A stretch of DNA of 63,799 nucleotides, counting the filler, from Platydemus manokwari (taxonomy: Eukaryota): assembly GCA_037951405.1 (NCBI GenBank). It is 6 parts of 6 records of this genome, joined end to end, with 100 filler letters (N's around TTAATTAATTAA, not from the genome) between each part and the next. Parts side by side here need not be neighbours in the genome. Positions count along the whole stretch, not along the records: positions 38,169 to 54,359 come from JBBMOY011201432.1; 5 more parts are not named here. The stretch is one strand, 5' to 3'. Numbering within the stretch: the first letter of the stretch is position 1; every line of letters begins with the position of its first letter. Shown piece after piece: positions 10,279 through 60,759 of this stretch. The notes below the pieces were generated by a model. That model made no database searches. It saw only the letters and a list, made by a program, of their open reading frames with translations, and had not been told where the DNA came from. Both the position numbers and the translations under genes were made by a program.

Positions 10279-10378
10279 NNNNNNNNNNNNNNNNNNNNNN
10301 NNNNNNNNNNNNNNNNNNNNNNTTAATTAATTAANNNNNNNNNNNNNNNNNNNNNNNNNNNNNNNNNNNNNNNNNNNN
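10279..10378. other. Artificial contig spacer N44-TTAATTAATTAA-N44
   Basis: Exactly 100 nt with a central all-frame stop linker; the same structure recurs five times. Confidence 0.97.
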
Positions 10379-29610: not shown

Positions 29611-30297
29611 TTAGGTTGTTGCATAAGTTCCCGTCGTTACATGAAACTATTTGTTCTATTAAGGCTTTTCGATGTTTAACGACGTGTTATATGCCATAAG
29701 AAAGCCTGTGCTCTACAAGATTAAAGTAATCCTGTTAGACTATAATATATTTTTTGTCTTTTTGTATAACCGTTAAGTCGACAAAATATCGCATTTAATC
29801 GAGATAAAAAAGTGAGTGAAGCTAACAGAGACATTTGTACCGTTTATGGAGATAATGCTATAGTTGAGTGAACTCCTCGGAATCAGTTTACTAGTTTCAA
29901 ACACAATAATTTCGATCTCAACGACGCTCCTAGCTCAGGAAGACCAATCGAGATGGACTGGAACCAACTCGGAGATATTTTGAAGGAAGTTGACCACCAG
30001 AGATGCAGATAATTGGACGAAATTTGCAACAATTTCATGTCATCATCAGTCAATGGGGTTTGCCCAAAAGCTTGGAGTTTGGATCCCACACTAACTCACC
30101 CAAAACCAGAAGCACTCGAGTGAAGAAGATCTGGCCGAATAGAATCAACAAACTGGTGAAAAGATGGAAAGAGGTAGTGAACAATGAAGGAGTGCTATTA
30201 TTTGATTGAAGTGTTATTATTTTTGCTGTTAAAATTGTTGGATTTCTTTGAAAACAAATGTTTGAAAAAGACGGGAACTTATGCAACAACCCTTTAA
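29611..30297 (+). mobile_element. Mariner element, internally deleted (~690 nt)
   Basis: TIRs ttaggttgttgcataagttcccgtc / gacgggaacttatgcaacaacc, TA flanks; HTH remnant ICTVYGDNA...FDLNDAPSSGRP and C-terminal INKLVKRWKEVVNNEG; DDD core absent. Confidence 0.93.
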
Positions 30298-38168: not shown

Positions 38169-38818
38169 CCAAATTTTATTTTGTATATATTTTTGCATTT
38201 TTCGAATAATTAAAAATTTCAATTAAGTAATATTCAAAGTTCGTTTACCTTTATTTTTACCTGAAAATTCTTGACACTAATAATTGATTTTATAAAAAAA
38301 ATACACATTAAGGCTTAATCAATTTCAGATTTTATCATAATTAATTTTAAATGTTGAAAGTACTATTAATTTCTGTCATAGATTTCTTGTTTTAATAATG
38401 AAATGTAATCACACCACAGTTAAATCATCTGTTACGTTTTCTATTATTAGAATTATTTTCTGAATTTCATCATAAGTTCAGAAGTTCCTGTATCGAAATA
38501 TATTCTAATATAAATTTCAACCATTATTATTTATCAATATCAACTCTTATCAGAGTTACCGGCAAAGGGAAATTGGTAAGAGATATTTATTTCTTAATAT
38601 ACACAAATAACAAATTCAAAACTAAACGATATATAACTATTTTATTACCAAATAAAATTTTAAGTCGATATTGATAATACAATGCGTTCAAAAATTGTAC
38701 TTTGTTCAAGTGACATGCATATCTGTATTTTATATGGTTTGCATGCATTGTTTGCATAGGTAGCATTTAAATAATCATTATAAATAATAATCAATTTTAA
38801 AATTTATTATTCATTCAG

Positions 38819-48481: not shown

Positions 48482-48646
48482 ATAAATTAAATTTACTTTG
48501 ATTTCTGTTCAAAATATTATTTATTTTTCCTAATAAATTTATTTTATCATTTTTTTAATTAAATAAATAATAAAAATATTGATTTCAAATTTTTGTGGTG
48601 ATAAAATTTTGTTGGAATAATATTTGATAAAATATATAAATTCAAA

Positions 48647-50155
48647 ATGACTGATAATATGGTTTGTTATGTTTGTTATGAAGAATTTAGCACAAATTTT
48701 GATAATTTCGCCATGTTTCAATGCGATCACAAGCTCTGTATTGAATGTATTGACTTGATGATATTCAATAATCAAGATCTCAAATGTCCTTTCGACAATA
48801 AACTCGTTGACATTATTTACAATCAAACTCTCTTCAAAACAATTGCAGAATACACATTGGATTTATGGGCTAATAAACGAAAATCAAAACAAGCTCAATT
48901 TGAAAATTATTGGTGGAAGTTCATTTCAAGTTTTGTAACTGTTGTCAATTCGTCGTTGAAAATTATAAATGGAGATGATGAAACAAGTAGAACAATAAGT
49001 CATAATTCCGATAAGATAATCAAACAAAGCCAGGCTCTGTCTGAAATTCTCAATAATACACTTTACCAGATCAAGAAATCATTCTCAGAACATCAGGCAG
49101 AGAAAGAGATTCGTATAATCGAACATTTTTTGAAAAAATATCCCCGACAACAAATTCCACCTTTTGATTACAATATTCTCAACAGCAATTTTATATTTGA
49201 GATAACTGCTCATTGTTATGAATTGAAAATGTATTGCCATTCGTTGATGATGATCAATGACTCACGCAAAACGAAACTTAATCAATATCTCAAAGAGGAG
49301 ATGAACTATTTAACAGGAATTACTATTTCACATCTTACCAACAATCAACATATTTATCACTTAGCACGTCCTGATGTCATAGCAACCGATATTGAGAAAT
49401 GTTTGATTTGTTGTTCATTGATCAACGGAAATGAATTCGCCATGTTTCCTCAATGCCAACACAAAAGATGTTTACATTGTATCGAAACATGTCTAATTAT
49501 GCATGGCAGTTGCCCGTTTGATGGTAATGAAATTGTAAATTTGCAAATTCCAGAAACTACCGAGTCGGTACGAGTATATATATCGAGTAATTATCGAAAT
49601 ATTGCCACCAAATTATTTAACAGATGTATGGTGAATTATATCAAGATAGTCAGCAGAACGTCGGATATATTTCGTGATACACCAGATTTAATGAAAGGAT
49701 TAATAGACTATCGAGCAAATAGATCTGAATCGATAATCAAACGAATTGTAGAATTGGTACGAAAAGAAATAAGTCGAAATGAATTGAGTCCTATTCTTTA
49801 CGAAGAGAAACATAAAAAGACATTCTTAATCTTGAAATATTATCTGTCTAAATTTTTGGAGTTTGATGGGTTTGTCAATGAATTTGCAGTCGTTGATAGC
49901 ACAGTGATCGATATGATTGGCGAGTGCCTATATTTCACATCTTCCTATAGTTATTTATCAAAGTTGAATTTGGAATCAAGTGATTTTTGTGTAAGAAGTG
50001 TGGAAAATTTACTCAGACGCTTTAAAAAGTTTGCTCATTTCTTAGAACGATTCGAAACAAAACAATATTGCGATGAACATTTCTTTGAGTTTCATAATCA
50101 AGTGATAAAGTTGAAGAATATCATTAGTGCTCAACAGCACCATTTCCGTATTTAA
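48647..50155 (+). CDS. Intronless 502-aa protein with two tandem RING (C3HC3D-type) + helical modules; putative E3 ubiquitin ligase
   Basis: RING1 C-x2-C-x15-C-x-H-x2-C-x2-C-x12-CPFD from aa 7; RING2 C-x2-C-x14-C-x-H-x2-C-x2-C-x10-CPFD from aa 252; both contain FAMF; 1.5-kb open frame in very AT-rich DNA; AATAAA ~200 nt downstream. Confidence 0.85.
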   Translation: MTDNMVCYVCYEEFSTNFDNFAMFQCDHKLCIECIDLMIFNNQDLKCPFDNKLVDIIYNQTLFKTIAEYTLDLWANKRKSKQAQFENYWWKFISSFVTVVNSSLKIINGDDETSRTISHNSDKIIKQSQALSEILNNTLYQIKKSFSEHQAEKEIRIIEHFLKKYPRQQIPPFDYNILNSNFIFEITAHCYELKMYCHSLMMINDSRKTKLNQYLKEEMNYLTGITISHLTNNQHIYHLARPDVIATDIEKCLICCSLINGNEFAMFPQCQHKRCLHCIETCLIMHGSCPFDGNEIVNLQIPETTESVRVYISSNYRNIATKLFNRCMVNYIKIVSRTSDIFRDTPDLMKGLIDYRANRSESIIKRIVELVRKEISRNELSPILYEEKHKKTFLILKYYLSKFLEFDGFVNEFAVVDSTVIDMIGECLYFTSSYSYLSKLNLESSDFCVRSVENLLRRFKKFAHFLERFETKQYCDEHFFEFHNQVIKLKNIISAQQHHFRI

Positions 50156-51330: not shown

Positions 51331-52597
51331 TTTTAATTGATGGTTTTTACACTTAAATAAAATTTAGTAATACTCCAGGTCCAGATAATTTTCTTTAAAT
51401 AAATCTCTGATTTCAAATTTTTCTTGCTCAATTAAACCTCTTCTAATTCATATAAGTTCTAAGAGATTAGGTTTTGATGGATTATGAGGAAATATAATCA
51501 AAATATATAATTTAATTTCATATGGAATCTTTAATTCCTTAAGTAATACATTATTTAAGTAAATACAAAACTTTCCATTTTTTGATCTTTTATTAATTTC
51601 ATAAATTAATAATCTCGGTTTTTTAGCCATAAAATCAATTTCTTTCTCAAATAAGAGAAAGAACATTTGTCGCAATATATAAACTCTGCTCCATGATTAT
51701 TATCCGGAAAAACAGTTCCATATTTTGTTCCAATACAGCTTCCTCGCCCACCAACATATTGAACAAGAAATACAAAACTGAATTTCATCGGATTAAAAAG
51801 CCTAAAGAGTCCCTCCATCTCTCCCACAATTCCTTTATGCCATCAAATCCAATATTATTTATTTGCCATTATAATATTCATGAAAACAGTTCCAATTTAT
51901 GAGATATAATCAATGATTCAATTTATAATATTTTTCAAATTTTGTAGGCCGCTTATCATTAAAAATCATAGTTCCAGTTTTATAACAATTAATATTGGTT
52001 CGATCTTTCTTTAAACACGCACACATTTGTCTATTTTTTGTCATTGTTAATAAAAATAAGAGATTTAAATAGCTTGTTTAAGTTCACACCTAAATTTTTA
52101 TCTACTTGTCCTCTAAAATGAAGGCTAAATTATGTAGTTATCATTTCTAACAATTTGGATTCTCTTTTACCTTGTATGAATTTTAATTGATTAACTTTTT
52201 CATTGAATAATTTTATCTTTATTTTATTTATTTTTTTTATTATCATTTATCATTACAATTATTGATTTACATACCGCATTGTTATATAGGCTGTTTATAA
52301 CTAAATAAATACATAGTTAAAATAAAATGAAACTATAATATTTATTCAATTAAAACATATAATTTAAAGCACAGAATTTATTTAAAAGGGGTAACCGAAT
52401 GCGTAAGCATTTTGTCAGCCTAAAACATGAAAGCATAATGTAAAATAAAATATTACCAACATACTTACTATATAGTGAATTTAAGCAAAAAATTTGTGTT
52501 TATATCATTTTTTAAACTATTTATACTAGTTAATAATATGTGCTTTACATAGTAATTATAATTAATTATAATATAATTATAATTTTTAATTAACTAT

Positions 52598-52885
52598 CAG
52601 ATTGAGCCACGACCATCCATCATACTCGTAGTTCAATCTGTAATTTATTATGAATTAGATTTCTCCAATGGGATTTGTCTTAACTACAATGATAAGTCAA
52701 AATTTAGCCTTATTTGTCTGTGGTTCGAGGCACTGATGAGGGCCCTGGGAGGCCAAAATACGACATTACCCTTAAAACCACCATCGTCATCATTGGAGCT
52801 ATCGTTCTTCAAGTCTCAGAGAAATAGCCGTATGCCTCTGAACTGATATACTGCTTAGGTCTACAGGGGGCCGAAATAGGACTAA
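52598..52885 (+). ncRNA. Structured element with two degenerate hammerhead-ribozyme cores sharing stem I
   Basis: CTGATGA at 52733 + ggcc/ggcc stem II; CTGCTTA at 52851 + ggtct/gggcc stem II + GAAA at 52873; 52722-52732 pairs with 52833-52844; 52704-52713 pairs with 52876-52885; 15-bp hairpin 52598-52640. Confidence 0.55.
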
Positions 52886-53174
52886 TTTTCTGCAAAAGAT
52901 AGTTTATTTATTTATTTTTATATTTTGATAACTTAACAGAATCAGGTCTACCAATACTTTCTTTCTTATTACTAATAAATTCAGATCTTTTACTTGACAT
53001 AAAAGTAAAAATTCTAAAAATTTTTTGAGTTTCATTTTTAAAATTTACTGATAATTTATTGAGATTTATTCTAGAAAACTTTCAAAATTTACTCTAGAAA
53101 ATTTAATCTTCAAATATTTATTTTTTAAAATTTACTCTTCTATATAAATCTCAAATATAATCTCAAGGATCAAA

Positions 53175-53822: not shown

Positions 53823-53929
53823 AAATTTTATTTTATTTTGATTCCAAACAAAATTCATTTTAAAGTAAGAAAATGAATATTAAATTTCACAAAATAAATT
53901 TAAATTATGTTTTGATCCCACATTTTTTA

Positions 53930-54291
53930 ACACTTATTGTAACCATTATATTTGTGAAGAATGTGAAGAAAAAATTAAAATGAAGATTGTATAAGGGAAT
54001 TCAAAGATAAACTTAGATAAAATCAGAATATTTTATCAAAGAATTTCAGGATAAAGTTCATTGGAGATGTATTTCTATTAATTAGAAACTTTCTGAAGAT
54101 TATATCAGAGAATTTCAAAATAAAGTTGATTTGGAAAGTATTTCAGAATATCAAAGACTTTCTGAAGATTTTATCCGAGAATCTAAGGATAAAGTTGATT
54201 GGTCATTTATTTCATGTTATTAAAAACTAAATCAAGATCTTATCCTAGAATTAAAGGATAAAGTTGATTGGTCATTTATTTCATGTTATAG
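53930..54291 (+). pseudogene. Tryptophan-repeat (23-aa) protein pseudogene, entomopoxvirus/NCLDV type, preceded by a RING-like half motif
   Basis: Exact 69-nt period (ataaagtt at 54051, 54120, 54189, 54258); EFQDKVHWRCISIN*KLSEDYIREFQNKVDLESISEYQRLSEDFIRESKDKVDWSFISCY*KL...; upstream TYCNHYICEEC. Confidence 0.8.
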
Positions 54292-54359
54292 GGTTTTTTA
54301 AGTTTTAAAATAAATTTTGCACAATTTAAGATAATTATTTACATGAATAAGAGAATTGT

Positions 54360-54459: not shown

Positions 54460-54532
54460 TTGATATTGAATTTTATTTAATATTAAATTTTATTTATTTT
54501 CTTTAAATAATTGCCTTTGAATAGAATTGAAT

Positions 54533-54690
54533 GTCGTGACTTTTCAGTTCGTTTTCTGATGCGTGTTTTATAAAATAGTAGAGGCTTACATGGTGATCAA
54601 TCATCTGGAATCGATCGGTGACTGAAAATTACAGAAAAGAAGGAGGAAGATGTTGTAACTATATAGAGAATATATAAAGAAGATGTAGAG
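54533..54690. repeat. Inverted repeat, left arm (partner ~56810-56962)
   Basis: cgtgact...ttacatgg...catctgga...gaaaagaaggag.aagatgttg...tagagaatatataaagaagat is the reverse complement of 56810-56962. Confidence 0.8.
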
Positions 54691-56809
54691 AAGATATAAA
54701 GGAAATAGAATAATTATATATTTTTATGTAGATAAATATTTTATACATTTTCAATTAATAATACAAAGAAAATCAAAGATTTTGAAAAATGGGGGGGGCG
54801 TGAGAATTGTTAAATGAATTATAATTTTAATGATTTGATTTTAAAATTCTATTGATTTGTTTATATAATTCTATTTAAGTACATAATTTGGTGTCGTGGG
54901 TTTTCAGTTTGTTATCAAACCATGCTTTGTAAAAGAGTAGCTGCTTACAAGAAGTATCCCAAATAAACTTACCGAAACCATAATTTCGGAGTCAGAGTAA
55001 ACAGTGCAAATCTTTCATTCTTGAATTTTTGATGTTTCTATAGAAATTCTAATCTTGTTTTCTTTTACTAAAATAAGCACTGAAAATAAAATTTAAGAAC
55101 TTCAACCCAGAAAAGTATATTTCTTCTAAATATTCAATCAAATTATCAAAACACATTTTCCATTATTTATTTTATTTAAAATGATTATTTAAAAAAAATT
55201 ATCTCATAACTTTACAATCATTCCATTTATGAAAATAATTCTTAGACGTTCTAAATTATTTCTACTAATCTTGGCTCCATATATATTAAACCGTTCCAAT
55301 AATAACTTGATCCGTCTTTCATAAATTTAAAATAATATATTTTTAATTAATATTTCGTTTTCGAGGATTATTTACTCCCGTCACTTTATGTTGAATTCGG
55401 ATTGAATTAAAAGAATTCCCATTTTGGGAATCAATATAATTTCGCTATATAAAATTTTGAACTCATTTCATTTGATAAGATTCGTGTGTTTCTATGATTT
55501 TTAATTATTTAATCCAAATGACAGTTCCGCAAATCTACTATTTGAATCTCCGAACCCACTTGTTTTATTTATCGAGAAAGAAACTAAAGGAAATATAAAT
55601 ATTAACTAAACGGTTATCATAGTCACTGTTCAAGATACATTTATCTAAGAACTCAGAACTTTTTTATTTTTAATAAATAAATTTAAACTTCTTCGAATTC
55701 AGTTTGTCGAATAGTTTTGCTTTACTTTAGATTGGGAATCTGATATATTTCTTGATTATAAAAATCAAACAAGATGAAGATCGATATGGTCTCATGAAAT
55801 CAAACTGAAATTCCTAAAAGTAAAGAAATGATGATAGTTCCATGGGTTAATGGTGTTTATTATACAGATAAATAGCGCTTTCAACTATAAACATAGCTGT
55901 GGGATTTAAAATTACATGCGTTTTAAAAAAGTGTTTTAGAGGCGCGGTAAATGTATAAGAAAATTACCTCTTCAAAATTAGTACTTTTATTACGAGACTG
56001 CAAATAACAGAGAAATATCTGTGAAATGATATGATTCATATAAATAAGCACTCCGCCCAGTGTAAATTTTCAATTTCGTTGACAATTTATATATATTAGC
56101 AAATCGACGATAGTTTCACATTATTAAATTTACCTCAGATTTTAATTGTTTTATTGAAGTCGGATTTTAGGAAAACATAAAACTTTCACCGAGGCGGTTG
56201 AATATCGGTTTTTTTTAGTATTCACAGCTGATTTTCAGACTTAACTCTACTAATATTGCAAGAAGTAACCATTCGCGGAATATCAGTCATATATTATTGA
56301 TAGTAAGTGGATGCAATAGTCGATTAATAGATCATTGATTAATAGACCAATTGGCTCATGGTTCACCAAAATTTATCCAGGGAAATCAATGGCCATTTCT
56401 GTTATGAATCTTTAAATATCAATGTGATCTCATGATTTATTAAAATACGAGTTCCTGATTAGCTGAAATAAGAAGAATGTTTACACGATTTTAAAGTTTG
56501 ATAAGGTCTTCACAAAGTTGACAGAAAAATAATCTATTCATCTTTATTTATGTTTAAATATTAGCCGCTACTATTTTATAAAACGTTCGTCGGAAAGGAA
56601 CTGAAAAAGACACGATAATTAATCATATATTTATATACAAATATTCACTAAATAATTATAATTTTATGTAAAATTATATCTTCAAAACTTTAATCAAATT
56701 ATAAAAAACTGACATTCCCCTTCGTTTAAAATCTTTGATTTACTTTGTTGTCTCAATTGACATTGCATCGAATACTCTAGGTATTTATCTACTAAACACC
56801 TCTAATTCC

Positions 56810-56962
56810 TCTATCTTCTTTATATATTCTCTATTTAGTCTCAACATCTTTCTCCTTCTTTTCCGGAATTTTAAGTCATTGATCTACGCATAATAGAATC
56901 CAGATGAGTGGTTGCCATGTAATCCTTCATTATTCTAAAAAACACACATACATAGTCACGAT
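56810..56962. repeat. Inverted repeat, right arm (partner ~54533-54690)
   Basis: atcttctttatatattctcta...caacatctt.ctccttcttttc...tccagatga...ccatgtaa...agtcacga. Confidence 0.8.
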
Positions 56963-57410
56963 ACGGCCTTGAAATAAAGATATTAGCCTTCAATTTCAAT
57001 ACACCGACCTCGTAAACTATAGTCTCATAATATATCCTAATACGTATAGCTTAGTTGACTTTTTAGCAATTAAAAGATCTCCGACTTCAATAAATAAACA
57101 GAATGAATGAATGATATTTTCTTTTTATTTACTTACTATTTTTGACTTTATTTGTTCTTTTGTTTCCAAATATAACAGAGACAAAAAAATCGATTCCCAT
57201 TTATTCATGAATATTTATTATTGAAATTGAATATGTTTAATAATCCTATCTTTCACCATCTATGATCCTCCCATTGTACAAGTCAGTTTCAACATTGAAT
57301 TATTGACAGATCAGAAATGGATTGTATGGCTTTTGTTTTTACTGGAGATAATAAATGATTGACTAAAAACAAACTATAAAACAAAAACAAATGCAATAAC
57401 TGAAAATTAA

Positions 57411-57740
57411 TGTTTTAATTTAATGAATATTTAATTCGTAATTAATCTATAATTATTGTTTTAATTAATCAATATTTAATTCATAATTAATCCATAGTTA
57501 TTGTTTTAATTAATCAATATTTAATTAATGTTTTAATCAGTAATATTTAATTCATAATTAATCTATAATTATTGTTTTAATTAATCAATATTTAATTCAT
57601 ACTTAATATATATTTATTGTTTTAATCAATCAATATTTAATTCATACTTAATCTTTATTTATTGTTTTAATTAATCAATATTTAATCCATACTTAATATA
57701 TATTTATTGTTTTAATTAATCAATATTTAATAAATCAATA
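57411..57740. repeat. AT-rich minisatellite, ~45-nt unit, ~7 copies
   Basis: Unit tgttttaattaatcaatatttaattcata(a/c)ttaat.tat..ttat recurring at ~45-nt spacing. Confidence 0.9.
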
Positions 57741-58070
57741 TATCCAAGTTTTTTGAGCCATTTACGTTTATCGGAAACTCGACTATTGATACATATTCAC
57801 TCAGATTAAAACAAAATACGGGAAAAATGGAAAAATTGAACAGCTCTTGATTAATATTCGATCATGTTTTTATGAATGTTTATTTTTATAAATCATAAAT
57901 TATATGAGCACGATATTTGTCAATAGTTGTCGATTTGTAAATTTAATATTGAAATCTCTTGCTGATATTTGAGTCGAATCGAAAATTTGAAAGTGGAAAA
58001 TTTGTAATTTCTTATCTATAAGAATTAGATTCAGTTCATATTCGCATGAATTGAAAGTGAATTGTTACAG

Positions 58071-58657: not shown

Positions 58658-60759
58658 TGTTTTTACCTACTGTCATGTCTATGTGCTGAAATAAATTTTT
58701 GCCTTAAAATCTTTCTCGACACAATAATACATTTGACCTAAATTAGTCGTTAAAAAATCTTTTGCAACATTCAATGAAGCCGGTAAAGTCTGAATATCTG
58801 ATATCGGGAAAAGTAAATGTTTCTGTATCTTTGTTAGATTTCCGAAAATCTCGGCACATTCTTGCTGATCCATTTTTCTTTGGAACTGCTACGATTGACG
58901 AAAATCAAGATACGATAGGCTCGATATTTTAAAATATTTGCTATCAGGTCTTGGTTCACTGGTTACTGTCCGGTAATTTGCGAAATTGCTCCCATTTTAG
59001 TTTGGATCTCGTATTTAATTAAATTTGTTAATTCTAAATTAAATCGAGTAGCTATAAAAATCTCACCGTCGAACCGACAACAATCTCTTCATTGTTAGTT
59101 CAATTATATCTTCATCGCTGTGTTTCCTGTTTACATTCAATGCGTCGATAGTTCTTATTTCTGCTAAAGACGTCCCACGTGTTTTCATCGCTGTGATTCC
59201 AGCAATAAATACAGGTGAACACTATTTTAACCACGAATCTTAAAATCTATTTTTATTCGAAATTGTGGGAAGCATTATCTTTTACATTAAGTTTTCGAGC
59301 TTAACAGAAAAACCGCCAGTTAATTTTTCTTCAGACTTTTTTTACTCATTACAGTTTTCAATGAATCCGAATGCAATAACATTTATAGCTTTGATTCATT
59401 GCATTCTATTTGCATTCTATCTCTCGCCTATAAATATCCTATTAACTCGACCCTATTCACAATATAGATGTCAAGAGATTGATGCCAGTTTTTTCCTTAT
59501 CTTCAGATAGTAAATGATCTAAATATTATATTTCTTTCTCGTTTTGAATATTTTTTTCTCATCAAGTATACAAAGAGCTCCATGTATCTGTATCTTTGTA
59601 TTTCTTGATGAAAAATTGTTCTTGCTCCTCTGTTCCTAATGTCAGGCATTTATCTCAAAAAGGAAGACAAAACTTCCGAAACCTCATCTCAACATAGCAA
59701 AGACAAGTTCCGATTTTCTAAAATGCATCTCGTGGCATCGTTTTTCTTTTAAAATAATTAAAAAGCTTAGTGGCTATCATCTTTATGCATCGTGTGGTCT
59801 GTCACTAGATGCTGATACCACATTGAATTTCTATATATCTCAAGGCATCGATTCAGATTTCCTTTGGATAAGATATCTTGACTGCTTTTTCACATTTCCT
59901 GCACGAATACTCTTCATTTTTCTAACATTACCTAATGTTGTTAGCAGGTCTAACTGGAGTAACTATTTCCAAAATACCAGTATTTTCTTGAGCTTGCTGC
60001 TTTGTAGTTCATTTAAAACATATAATCATGTGACTTCCTTTATCGATATCCTCTTTACATACACTTAAATGACCAGCTAGCTTTCCCGAAGCTCATACCG
60101 TTTTACTTTCACGCCAACTCTTCGCTAACCACTGACAATTCCTTAATTTTAACATAAATCGATTTGATATTTGAAATAAGCTTCATTAAAAAAACACAAA
60201 TTGCATCATTAGTGACAGCTTCTTACTTGCTACTCAACCCTATCATTTCTTTGTCTATACTTTCAGGTACTGTTAGATTTTGGTTTGAAATAAATGAGAA
60301 ATATATATTTAAATAATTGGATAACTCTTTATTGATCTATCCCAGAAATTAATATCAAAAAATACTATATCATTGCGACAGTTCTTATCATTACTTGTGA
60401 TTAACTTTCGTATTGAGGTGTGGTTGATAAAAAGGTATTATGCGGCTAGAATTACCATAAACCAATTTTATCAATAGATATGAATATCAGAACTCCCACA
60501 TGTCAGCTCATCAATTCATTATTTGTCGTACAAAATTGAGTAGAGCTTACGTCGTGATAATATTTATTGGCTAAAGAAATACTTCAAATAATAAAATCCT
60601 TTTCAACCAATTGTCGATTGTAATGAAAACGTGTTTGAGACGACCTTCTGCAAAATAATGAAATCACAAAGTGCCATCCAGAATTGAACATAATAATTGT
60701 AAAAAATATAATCAACATTTCGATATTATTTTGTTTTGATTTTATATATTTTCTTTCAG

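Follow-up and report, generated by a model that had tools for sequence, protein, structure and literature searches.

The A+T-rich DNA of Platydemus manokwari contains a G+C-richer island in which two hammerhead modules lie as homologous direct repeats; each has the type III layout, their stems and core are conserved over their loops, and each is broken. The interpretation that we lean towards, with modest confidence, is that the island is a decayed two-unit array of type III hammerheads, retrozyme-like in layout, with modules of 62–64 nt flanking a 56-nt spacer. A small, mobile, self-cleaving circular RNA is its probable origin.

Setting and extent of the island

The window, that is, the whole stretch of DNA analyzed here, comprises 63,799 nt of assembly GCA_037951405.1 in six parts joined by filler, and the island lies within the contig at 38169–54359 (JBBMOY011201432.1). 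Five identical spacers, each of 44 N, 12 bases and a further 44 N, are present at 10279, 19396, 28325, 38069 and 54360; these join separate contigs, and neighbours across them are therefore unlinked. The window is A+T-rich animal DNA with exons of ETS, RGS, mitochondrial carrier and phosphatidylserine decarboxylase genes. For the decarboxylase exon, the highest identity to a named species is 48%, to the mite Dinothrombium tinctorium, followed by 47% to a tapeworm, and two further records reach 68% and 75%. Against this background the island has a G+C content of 41%, as compared with 18% in both 300-nt flanks, which bears out the contrast described in the initial annotation, and all 19 of the motif stretches named there were found to read as given. 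The island is among four stretches of the window with at least 40% G+C; of the rest, one overlaps an ETS exon, one a mariner relic and one the PISD gene. The second of these (29770–30209, +) is a decayed mariner transposase (Pfam HTH_48, E 2.4e-6). The outer features of the island are as follows.

52592–52904 (no strand assigned): the island at its widest extent, with candidate 7-bp inverted ends at 52592–52598 and 52898–52904 (helix probability 0.52) and low-complexity flanks
52598–52640 (+): 15-bp hairpin
52641–52703 (+): linker, in which 52676–52688 pairs with the 3′ strand of half A stem I and 52663–52671 pairs with the spacer

The 15-bp hairpin had been proposed previously and proves to be real, with a folding z score of −6.4 (0 of 200 shuffles). 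It is the only one of 39 such hairpins in which the G+C content of the arms is at least 30%, and loop 1 of half A is a possible alternative partner for its 5′ arm (52602–52611 with 52719–52728). An alternative 8-bp pairing proposed alongside it is at chance level, a perfect helix as long being present in 80 of 200 shuffles; this pairing is formed in the predicted ground state with a probability of 0.97. The predicted ground state is a rod, formed with the linker pairings, that sequesters core A (z −1.81; 10 of 200 shuffles), and the folding z score for the island as a whole is −1.57. Two further candidate signals were rejected, namely a third partial copy of the module at 52660–52703, which was matched by 545 and 637 of 2000 shuffles, and the presence of three strong helices in the island, a number reached by 30 of 400 shuffles.

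Two type III modules in direct repetition

The modules, which we designate halves A and B, and the elements within and between them are listed below.

52704–52767 (+): half A, a contiguous type III hammerhead module, identified by a match to RF00008 (11.2 bits), a descriptor score of 29.6 and the column table
52704–52713 and 52758–52767 (+): half A stem III, 5′ and 3′ strands, from the module layout
52712–52714 (+): half A triplet AUU, the candidate cleavage site
52715–52720 and 52727–52732 (+): half A stem I, with loop 1 at 52721–52726, from the module layout
52733–52739 (+): half A core CUGAUGA, followed by an extra nucleotide at 52740, from the module layout
52741–52744 and 52751–52754 (+): half A stem II, with loop 2 at 52745–52750, from the module layout
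52768–52823 (+): 56-nt spacer separating the halves, with no repeat of it on either side (17–20 of 59 positions identical at the repeat offset)
52824–52885 (+): half B, a diverged direct copy of half A located 118 nt downstream, from its alignment to half A
52851–52857 (+): half B core, noncanonical at positions 6 and 8
52858–52862 and 52868–52872, with GAAA at 52873–52876 (+): half B stem II and GAAA box, both intact
52715–52832 (+): predicted 118-nt unit between the two cleavage sites, the would-be monomer or circle, deduced from the repeat period and the two triplets

The order of elements is the same in each module: 5′ strand of stem III, triplet, stem I hairpin, core, stem II, GAAA box and 3′ strand of stem III. 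The canonical type III hammerhead has a helix I of 6 bp with a 6–8-nt loop, a helix II of about 4 bp, an RUH cleavage site and a GAAAY box (PMC7936874, in excerpt). Half A compares with this in having five of six stem I pairs, a 6-nt loop, a 4-bp helix II, an AUU site and a Y after its GAAA box; its loop 2 contains 6–7 nt rather than the canonical 4, and position 12 (52755) of its core is noncanonical. The extra nucleotide that precedes stem II is a known natural feature of hammerheads, as an excerpt of PMC4209133 describes. In half B the module's own stem I has two mismatches in six pairs, the same proportion as its strand-swapped stem I has over six positions (considered below), and two nucleotides present in half A are missing at the cleavage site (52832/52833). 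Each half thus retains what the other has lost, CUGAUGA in half A and GAAA in half B.

Several measures support the relationship between the halves. The cores are direct repeats 118 nt apart with 22 of 32 positions identical without gaps, a value reached by 8 of 2000 shuffles, and the contrast that had been drawn between this locus and the usual tandem direct copies of animal hammerheads consequently falls away. Local alignment of the two halves extends over the full modules with a score of 51, which none of 20,000 shuffles reached and for which the best unrelated match in the window was 40. Half A, for its part, matches RF00008 end to end. The proposal that the island is hammerhead-derived and probably descends from a mobile self-cleaving RNA is supported. 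Of the 462 candidate pairs of cores in the window, this one takes first place on hammerhead score and again on mutual similarity, two measures that are not fully independent. The tests on the cores and on the pair were set up after the sequence had been seen, and they partly overlap.

The distribution of differences follows the hammerhead map. Overall, 38 of 58 aligned positions agree (66%), and agreement is concentrated in the stems and core (34 of 45 positions) as opposed to the loops (4 of 13; Fisher p = 0.006). Neutral decay of a perfect duplication would not favour the stems and core in this way, and from this pattern of substitutions we therefore infer that the two halves diverged while functioning as hammerheads. 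With a period of 118 nt, approximately 1.5 units are present, and the whole island measures about 300 nt. Loop 2 of half A and the corresponding loop of half B contain complementary triplets (52745–52747 and 52864–52866) that would face each other if the modules were nested.

Hammerhead scores against the background

The covariance models of Rfam gave a limited signal. A search of 52698–52775 alone returned two matches, the second of which was Hammerhead_3 (RF00008) at 52707–52764, covering model positions 1–54 with 11.2 bits and an E value of 6. This is far under the gathering score of 48.5, and since about one such match is expected per 64-kb window, the half A match does not stand alone as evidence. 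No match was obtained for half B by itself, no hammerhead was found in 52400–53100 at E values up to 10, and the search of the whole window gave nothing at the gathering score and nothing at E ≤ 5 at the island.

We also used a custom-built hammerhead descriptor, scored with and without correction for composition. Core A scores 29.6 and core B, in the nested fold, 29.1. Among 5000 shuffles of the island, 32 reach 29.6, but none gives two cores at 29.1, in agreement with the initial identification of two hammerhead-like cores. Single cores as good as these are common in the window background, and by the uncorrected descriptor the 12 highest-scoring background sites all exceed 30 on either strand of the window. 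After correction, core A is the best site on the plus strand and two minus-strand sites beat it, while the pair scores 23.4 as compared with 22.5 for the runner-up pairs (descriptor alone). On the opposite strand of the island no hammerhead was found, the best minus-strand descriptor scores being 18.9 and 17.1 versus 29.6 and 29.1.

These backgrounds bear directly on whether the resemblance to two hammerheads might be fortuitous, the island being instead an old duplication of short length within a patch of higher G+C, or else a structured RNA of some unclassified kind. Such an account would fit the lack of Rfam matches at the island in the whole-window search, the catalytic residues missing from both cores, the two sites that outscore core A after composition correction, the modest folding z score of the whole island and the design of all tests after inspection of the sequence. 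It does not sit well with the failure of any of the 5000 shuffles to produce two cores this good, with the first rank of the pair among 462 on two measures, or with conservation between the halves that tracks the hammerhead map. We therefore consider a chance or unrelated origin improbable.

Proposed shared stem I and nested fold

In the initial annotation, a single helix was drawn as stem I for both cores, so that one hammerhead would be nested head-to-head within the other. The helix in question can be described as an alternative fold of the tandem.

52715–52850 (+): strand-swapped, or shared, stem I, formed by 52715–52732 with 52833–52850 (17 pairs, two bulges, one mismatch and three G-U pairs)

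The stretches proposed for this helix are indeed present, but the helix as named stops short of core B, and reaching that core requires the addition of the weaker pairing 52715–52721 with 52845–52850, which contains one mismatch, G-U pairs and a bulge. The complete duplex has a predicted energy of −16.1 kcal/mol, reached by 55 of 20,000 shuffles. Stem III of core B was also correctly recognized, with nine of ten pairs in register with the AUU site. With respect to the nested arrangement as a whole, the fold can be formed, but it lies 14–19 kcal/mol above the predicted minimum (14 with the shorter constraint) and the pairing probability of its helices is 0.00.

The proposal that core A is type-I-like, with tacg paired to cgta, is not borne out. 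That register leaves core A without a cleavage nucleotide and position 15.1 unpaired, two nucleotides are missing there relative to half A, and no type I fold is found there among the 10 descriptor solutions listed. Rfam likewise returned no type I hammerhead match on 52720–52848, and the best descriptor folds are type III.

Much of the shared helix can be accounted for by the repeat itself. A strand swap is open to any tandem of hairpin-bearing modules, and the six pairs beside each core thus follow from duplication; as the halves are tandem paralogues, each of type III, the duplication of a single hairpin accounts for 12 of the 17–18 base pairs in the shared helix. What is left is the pairing between loop 1 of half A and loop 1 of half B, which is at chance, since 28% of random loops equal it, or 16% if the first U is held constant. 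In other words, the shared stem I is an isomer made by swapping strands and is available to every tandem of this kind.

Nonetheless, the nested layout might have been the working fold, with paralogous hammerheads co-evolved head-to-head on a 17-bp stem I, core B cutting at 52714, core A cutting at 52832 and the excised 118-nt piece remaining paired. The site at 52714 can in fact be served either by core A within its own module or by core B when nested, while the site at 52832 is two nucleotides short, leaving core A without a cleavage nucleotide in the register drawn. Across stems I and III, 24 of 30 positions pair when swapped as compared with 19 of 30 within the halves, and in all three columns in which both strands differ between the halves the swapped pairing is the only or the better one. 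With three columns the sign test gives p = 1 in 8; moreover, two of these columns belong to stem III, in which a monomer circle of 118 nt would pair the same strands and so fit equally well, and one of these two is at a helix end. The two mismatches in its own stem I leave core B with the nested form as its only good fold (29.1). The bulges of the shared helix are 5–6 bp from each core, and with both cores forced the nested fold is 2.8 kcal/mol better than the self-folded one. A 7-bp helix (52717–52723 with 52861–52867, −6.9 kcal/mol), which overlaps stems I and II, could link the stem I strand of core B to loop 2 in the manner of the arthropod type III pseudoknot (PMC7936874, in excerpt). Against these points stand the energy and probability of the nested fold, the chance-level pairing of the loops, and the observation that the stem I strand of half A pairs about as well with 52675–52692 and with 52602–52611. 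We thus regard the nested layout as unlikely to have been the working fold, and the case for a special shared-stem arrangement as weakly supported.

A short word recurs in both orientations within 52590–52905 (52602–52610, 52680–52687, 52796–52803 and 52839–52846 versus 52628–52636, 52720–52728 and 52898–52904), and loop 1 of half A thereby gains several rival partners.

A more specific version of the shared-helix reading places it in a virus, with paralogous type III modules that work only head-to-head, having co-evolved onto one shared helix I, and that cut a 118-nt RNA from a small transcript of an invertebrate's large DNA virus or of a virus-like element. We hold this to be unlikely; searches of the open-licence literature, in part off topic, found neither a hammerhead dimer that shares helix I nor a hammerhead of an animal DNA virus.

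Catalytic state of this copy

In neither motif are the CUGAnGA core and GAAA intact together. Excerpts of published work assign G12 as the general base and G8 as the source of the general acid (PMC6155905), and a natural A6C hammerhead variant is described as slow (PMC3088659). Core A lacks the general-base position, core B lacks the general-acid position as well as position 6, and the second site is two nucleotides short, which makes activity unlikely. Judging from these substitutions, this copy is most likely inactive in any fold, in line with the earlier view that the island is decayed and probably inactive, given the departures at position 12 in half A and at positions 6 and 8 in half B.

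Proposed origin and neighbourhood

Returning to the two-unit array, the anatomy suggests a possible cycle. Cleavage at both modules would free a 118-nt RNA, which might be circularised by a host ligase and reinserted by a borrowed reverse transcriptase; all of these steps are modelled on excerpts of PMC7761336 and PMC7229834, the anatomy being what is observed here. The two units were probably already different variants when they were joined. Several findings count against an array. At 118 nt the unit falls short of the 150–450 bp reported for animal retrozymes, whose motifs are of type I; the spacer has no second copy; the Rfam match of half A is weak; and region 52704–52885 folds no better than its own shuffles (z +0.68). 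Folded as a circle, the 118-nt unit would adopt its hammerhead fold at 5.4 kcal/mol above the minimum.

Also weighing against this reading, no further copies of the island were found in the 64-kb window, in phages, in plasmids or in prokaryote genomes. Specifically, blastn of the island returned short matches only (E ~4), in 29 phage records, and no match among plasmids; a motif scan of 185,579 prokaryote genomes gave two loci, which were rejected as both fall within protein-coding frames and lack a hammerhead match. No Pfam match to a reverse transcriptase or GIY-YIG domain was obtained in 137 nearby frames of at least 36 aa, with the contig ending 1.45 kb to the right. Box C/D snoRNA, tRNA and any other Rfam family gave no credible match for the island, and telomerase RNA, 7SK, RNase P/MRP and SRP were dropped when their motifs, as generally known, were not seen. 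A sigma-70 scan was at chance level and is not relevant to this host.

The surroundings of the island include virus-like debris. At 53884–54300 (+), a RING fragment (53884–53991) is followed by a frameshifted remnant of a 69-bp (23-residue) tryptophan repeat like that of Bacillus phage G, which is cut by the contig end. This remnant (54086–54220) matches PHROG 3532 (E 3.7e-13) and seven phage records, one of them annotated as a tryptophan repeat gene family, a family also present in insect poxviruses. To the left, 48605–50155 (+) is an intact intronless frame of 516 codons with two RING-like cysteine clusters, one weak match and no phage match; its nearest Atlas look-alikes are viral clusters (0.88, a lead only), and it is possibly a kept virus-derived gene. 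A frameshifted gene remnant is located at 51451–51842 (−), with a single 163-aa relative (P0180, E 4e-6) and no family matched. The island had been described as inserted in a viral relic. With the tryptophan-repeat remnant 1.2 kb away, and virus-like debris within 1–1.2 kb, insertion into a virus is a fair guess, but the island interrupts no recognisable gene.

This neighbourhood also invites the reading that the island, instead of being an inserted retro-element, is a small-RNA gene native to the host or to the virus-like DNA, with an RNA polymerase III transcript that is processed by a pair of hammerheads akin to those flanking prophage genes. Active hammerheads are clustered in prophages (PMC3088659, in excerpt), and both the tryptophan-repeat remnant and the RING fragment are 1–1.2 kb away. 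Using box patterns as we know them, an A-box-like site (52629), a B-box-like site (52722–52731) and a T4 run (52886–52889) are in the right order. Such sites are nevertheless frequent, with 15 A-like and 12 B-like sites across the window and three B-box-like sites found versus 1.5 expected (21 of 100 shuffles reach three). The A-like site moreover falls inside the 15-bp hairpin, no tRNA was found at the island, and the viral origin of the left flank depends on an Atlas lead below 0.9 and one relative. A native small-RNA gene is consequently a very doubtful explanation.

Other repeats and remnants were seen on the next contig. Inverted arms of 45–72 nt with 70–88% complementarity, about 2 kb apart at 54521–54945 and 56558–56949, look like an old element with long terminal inverted repeats, and 57350–57776 is an A+T-rich 45-bp tandem repeat of about eight copies. 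Short frames at 58682–58904 (−) have what we take to be a resemblance to the start of a gypsy-type reverse transcriptase; they are without Pfam support and belong to a different contig from the island.

Comparison with known systems

The features of known systems given here are those stated in excerpts of the cited papers. Searches of the open-licence literature, partly off topic, found no diverged type III tandem in an animal, and the reports of type III hammerheads from animal DNA in the excerpt of PMC7936874 are limited to scattered motifs in termites and flies. Those genomic motifs, which are related to HDV-like RNAs, have the same type III topology as the modules described here, and the nested reading of the island would share with them a long helix I and a possible pseudoknot to loop 2. 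In HDV-like and dipteran type III hammerheads, the long helix I has an internal loop that pairs with loop 2. The genomic motifs are, however, isolated and carry GCCR/YGGC pseudoknot letters, whereas the island is a diverged tandem pair without those letters.

Dimeric hammerheads provide a second point of reference. In avocado sunblotch viroid, the newt satellite and Penelope-like elements, tandem cores can likewise exchange strands (PMC4209133, PMC6155905), but they join through a short palindromic helix III, whereas a swap in the island would share helix I, and each half has a long helix III. The hammerhead of Penelope-like elements is a type I motif of minimal size, in which helix III is very short or absent, as compared with nine of ten helix III pairs in the island, and those elements have a linked frame for reverse transcriptase and GIY-YIG, neither of which was found in the 137 frames near the island. 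Viroid-like RNAs with ambisense ribozymes have one ribozyme per polarity, unlike the island with its lack of a minus-strand hammerhead.

The closest parallels are the retrozymes. Animal non-LTR retrozymes likewise consist of short tandem hammerhead units that are non-coding and below 50% G+C (PMC7229834; bioRxiv 10.64898/2026.07.22.740005), but their motifs are type I with a weak helix III in units of 150–450 bp, as opposed to the helix III of 9–10 bp, short type III loop 1 and 118-nt unit observed here. Such retrozymes also occur in many genomic copies and are expressed as circles, whereas the 64-kb window holds no further copy of the island. Plant LTR retrozymes likewise have two type III hammerheads in direct repeats around a unique non-coding middle, and double cleavage would in the same way free a monomer (PMC4918200, PMC7761336). 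Plant elements of this class further have a primer-binding site, a polypurine tract and a 4-bp target duplication. The island differs from these in its animal host, in repeats of about 64 nt versus about 350 bp that are only 66% identical, and in a middle of 56 nt versus 300–700. It is thus retrozyme-like but outside both retrozyme classes by size or hammerhead type.

As a single broken copy, the island should be taken as a starting point for searching the genome and not as a result in itself. If intact relatives were to covary across the shared helix I, they would represent a novel mode of folding in which each of two ribozymes gates the other. Hammerheads of type III are characteristic of plants and of the infectious circular RNAs found in plants. 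A tandem of them is unusual for an animal, and through a diverged pair with a unit of 118 nt the retrozyme layout would come to include an animal element of very small size. The pair also bears on the origin of plant retrozymes and viroid-like RNAs, and for the former, horizontal transfer from insects has been raised (PMC7761336, in excerpt).
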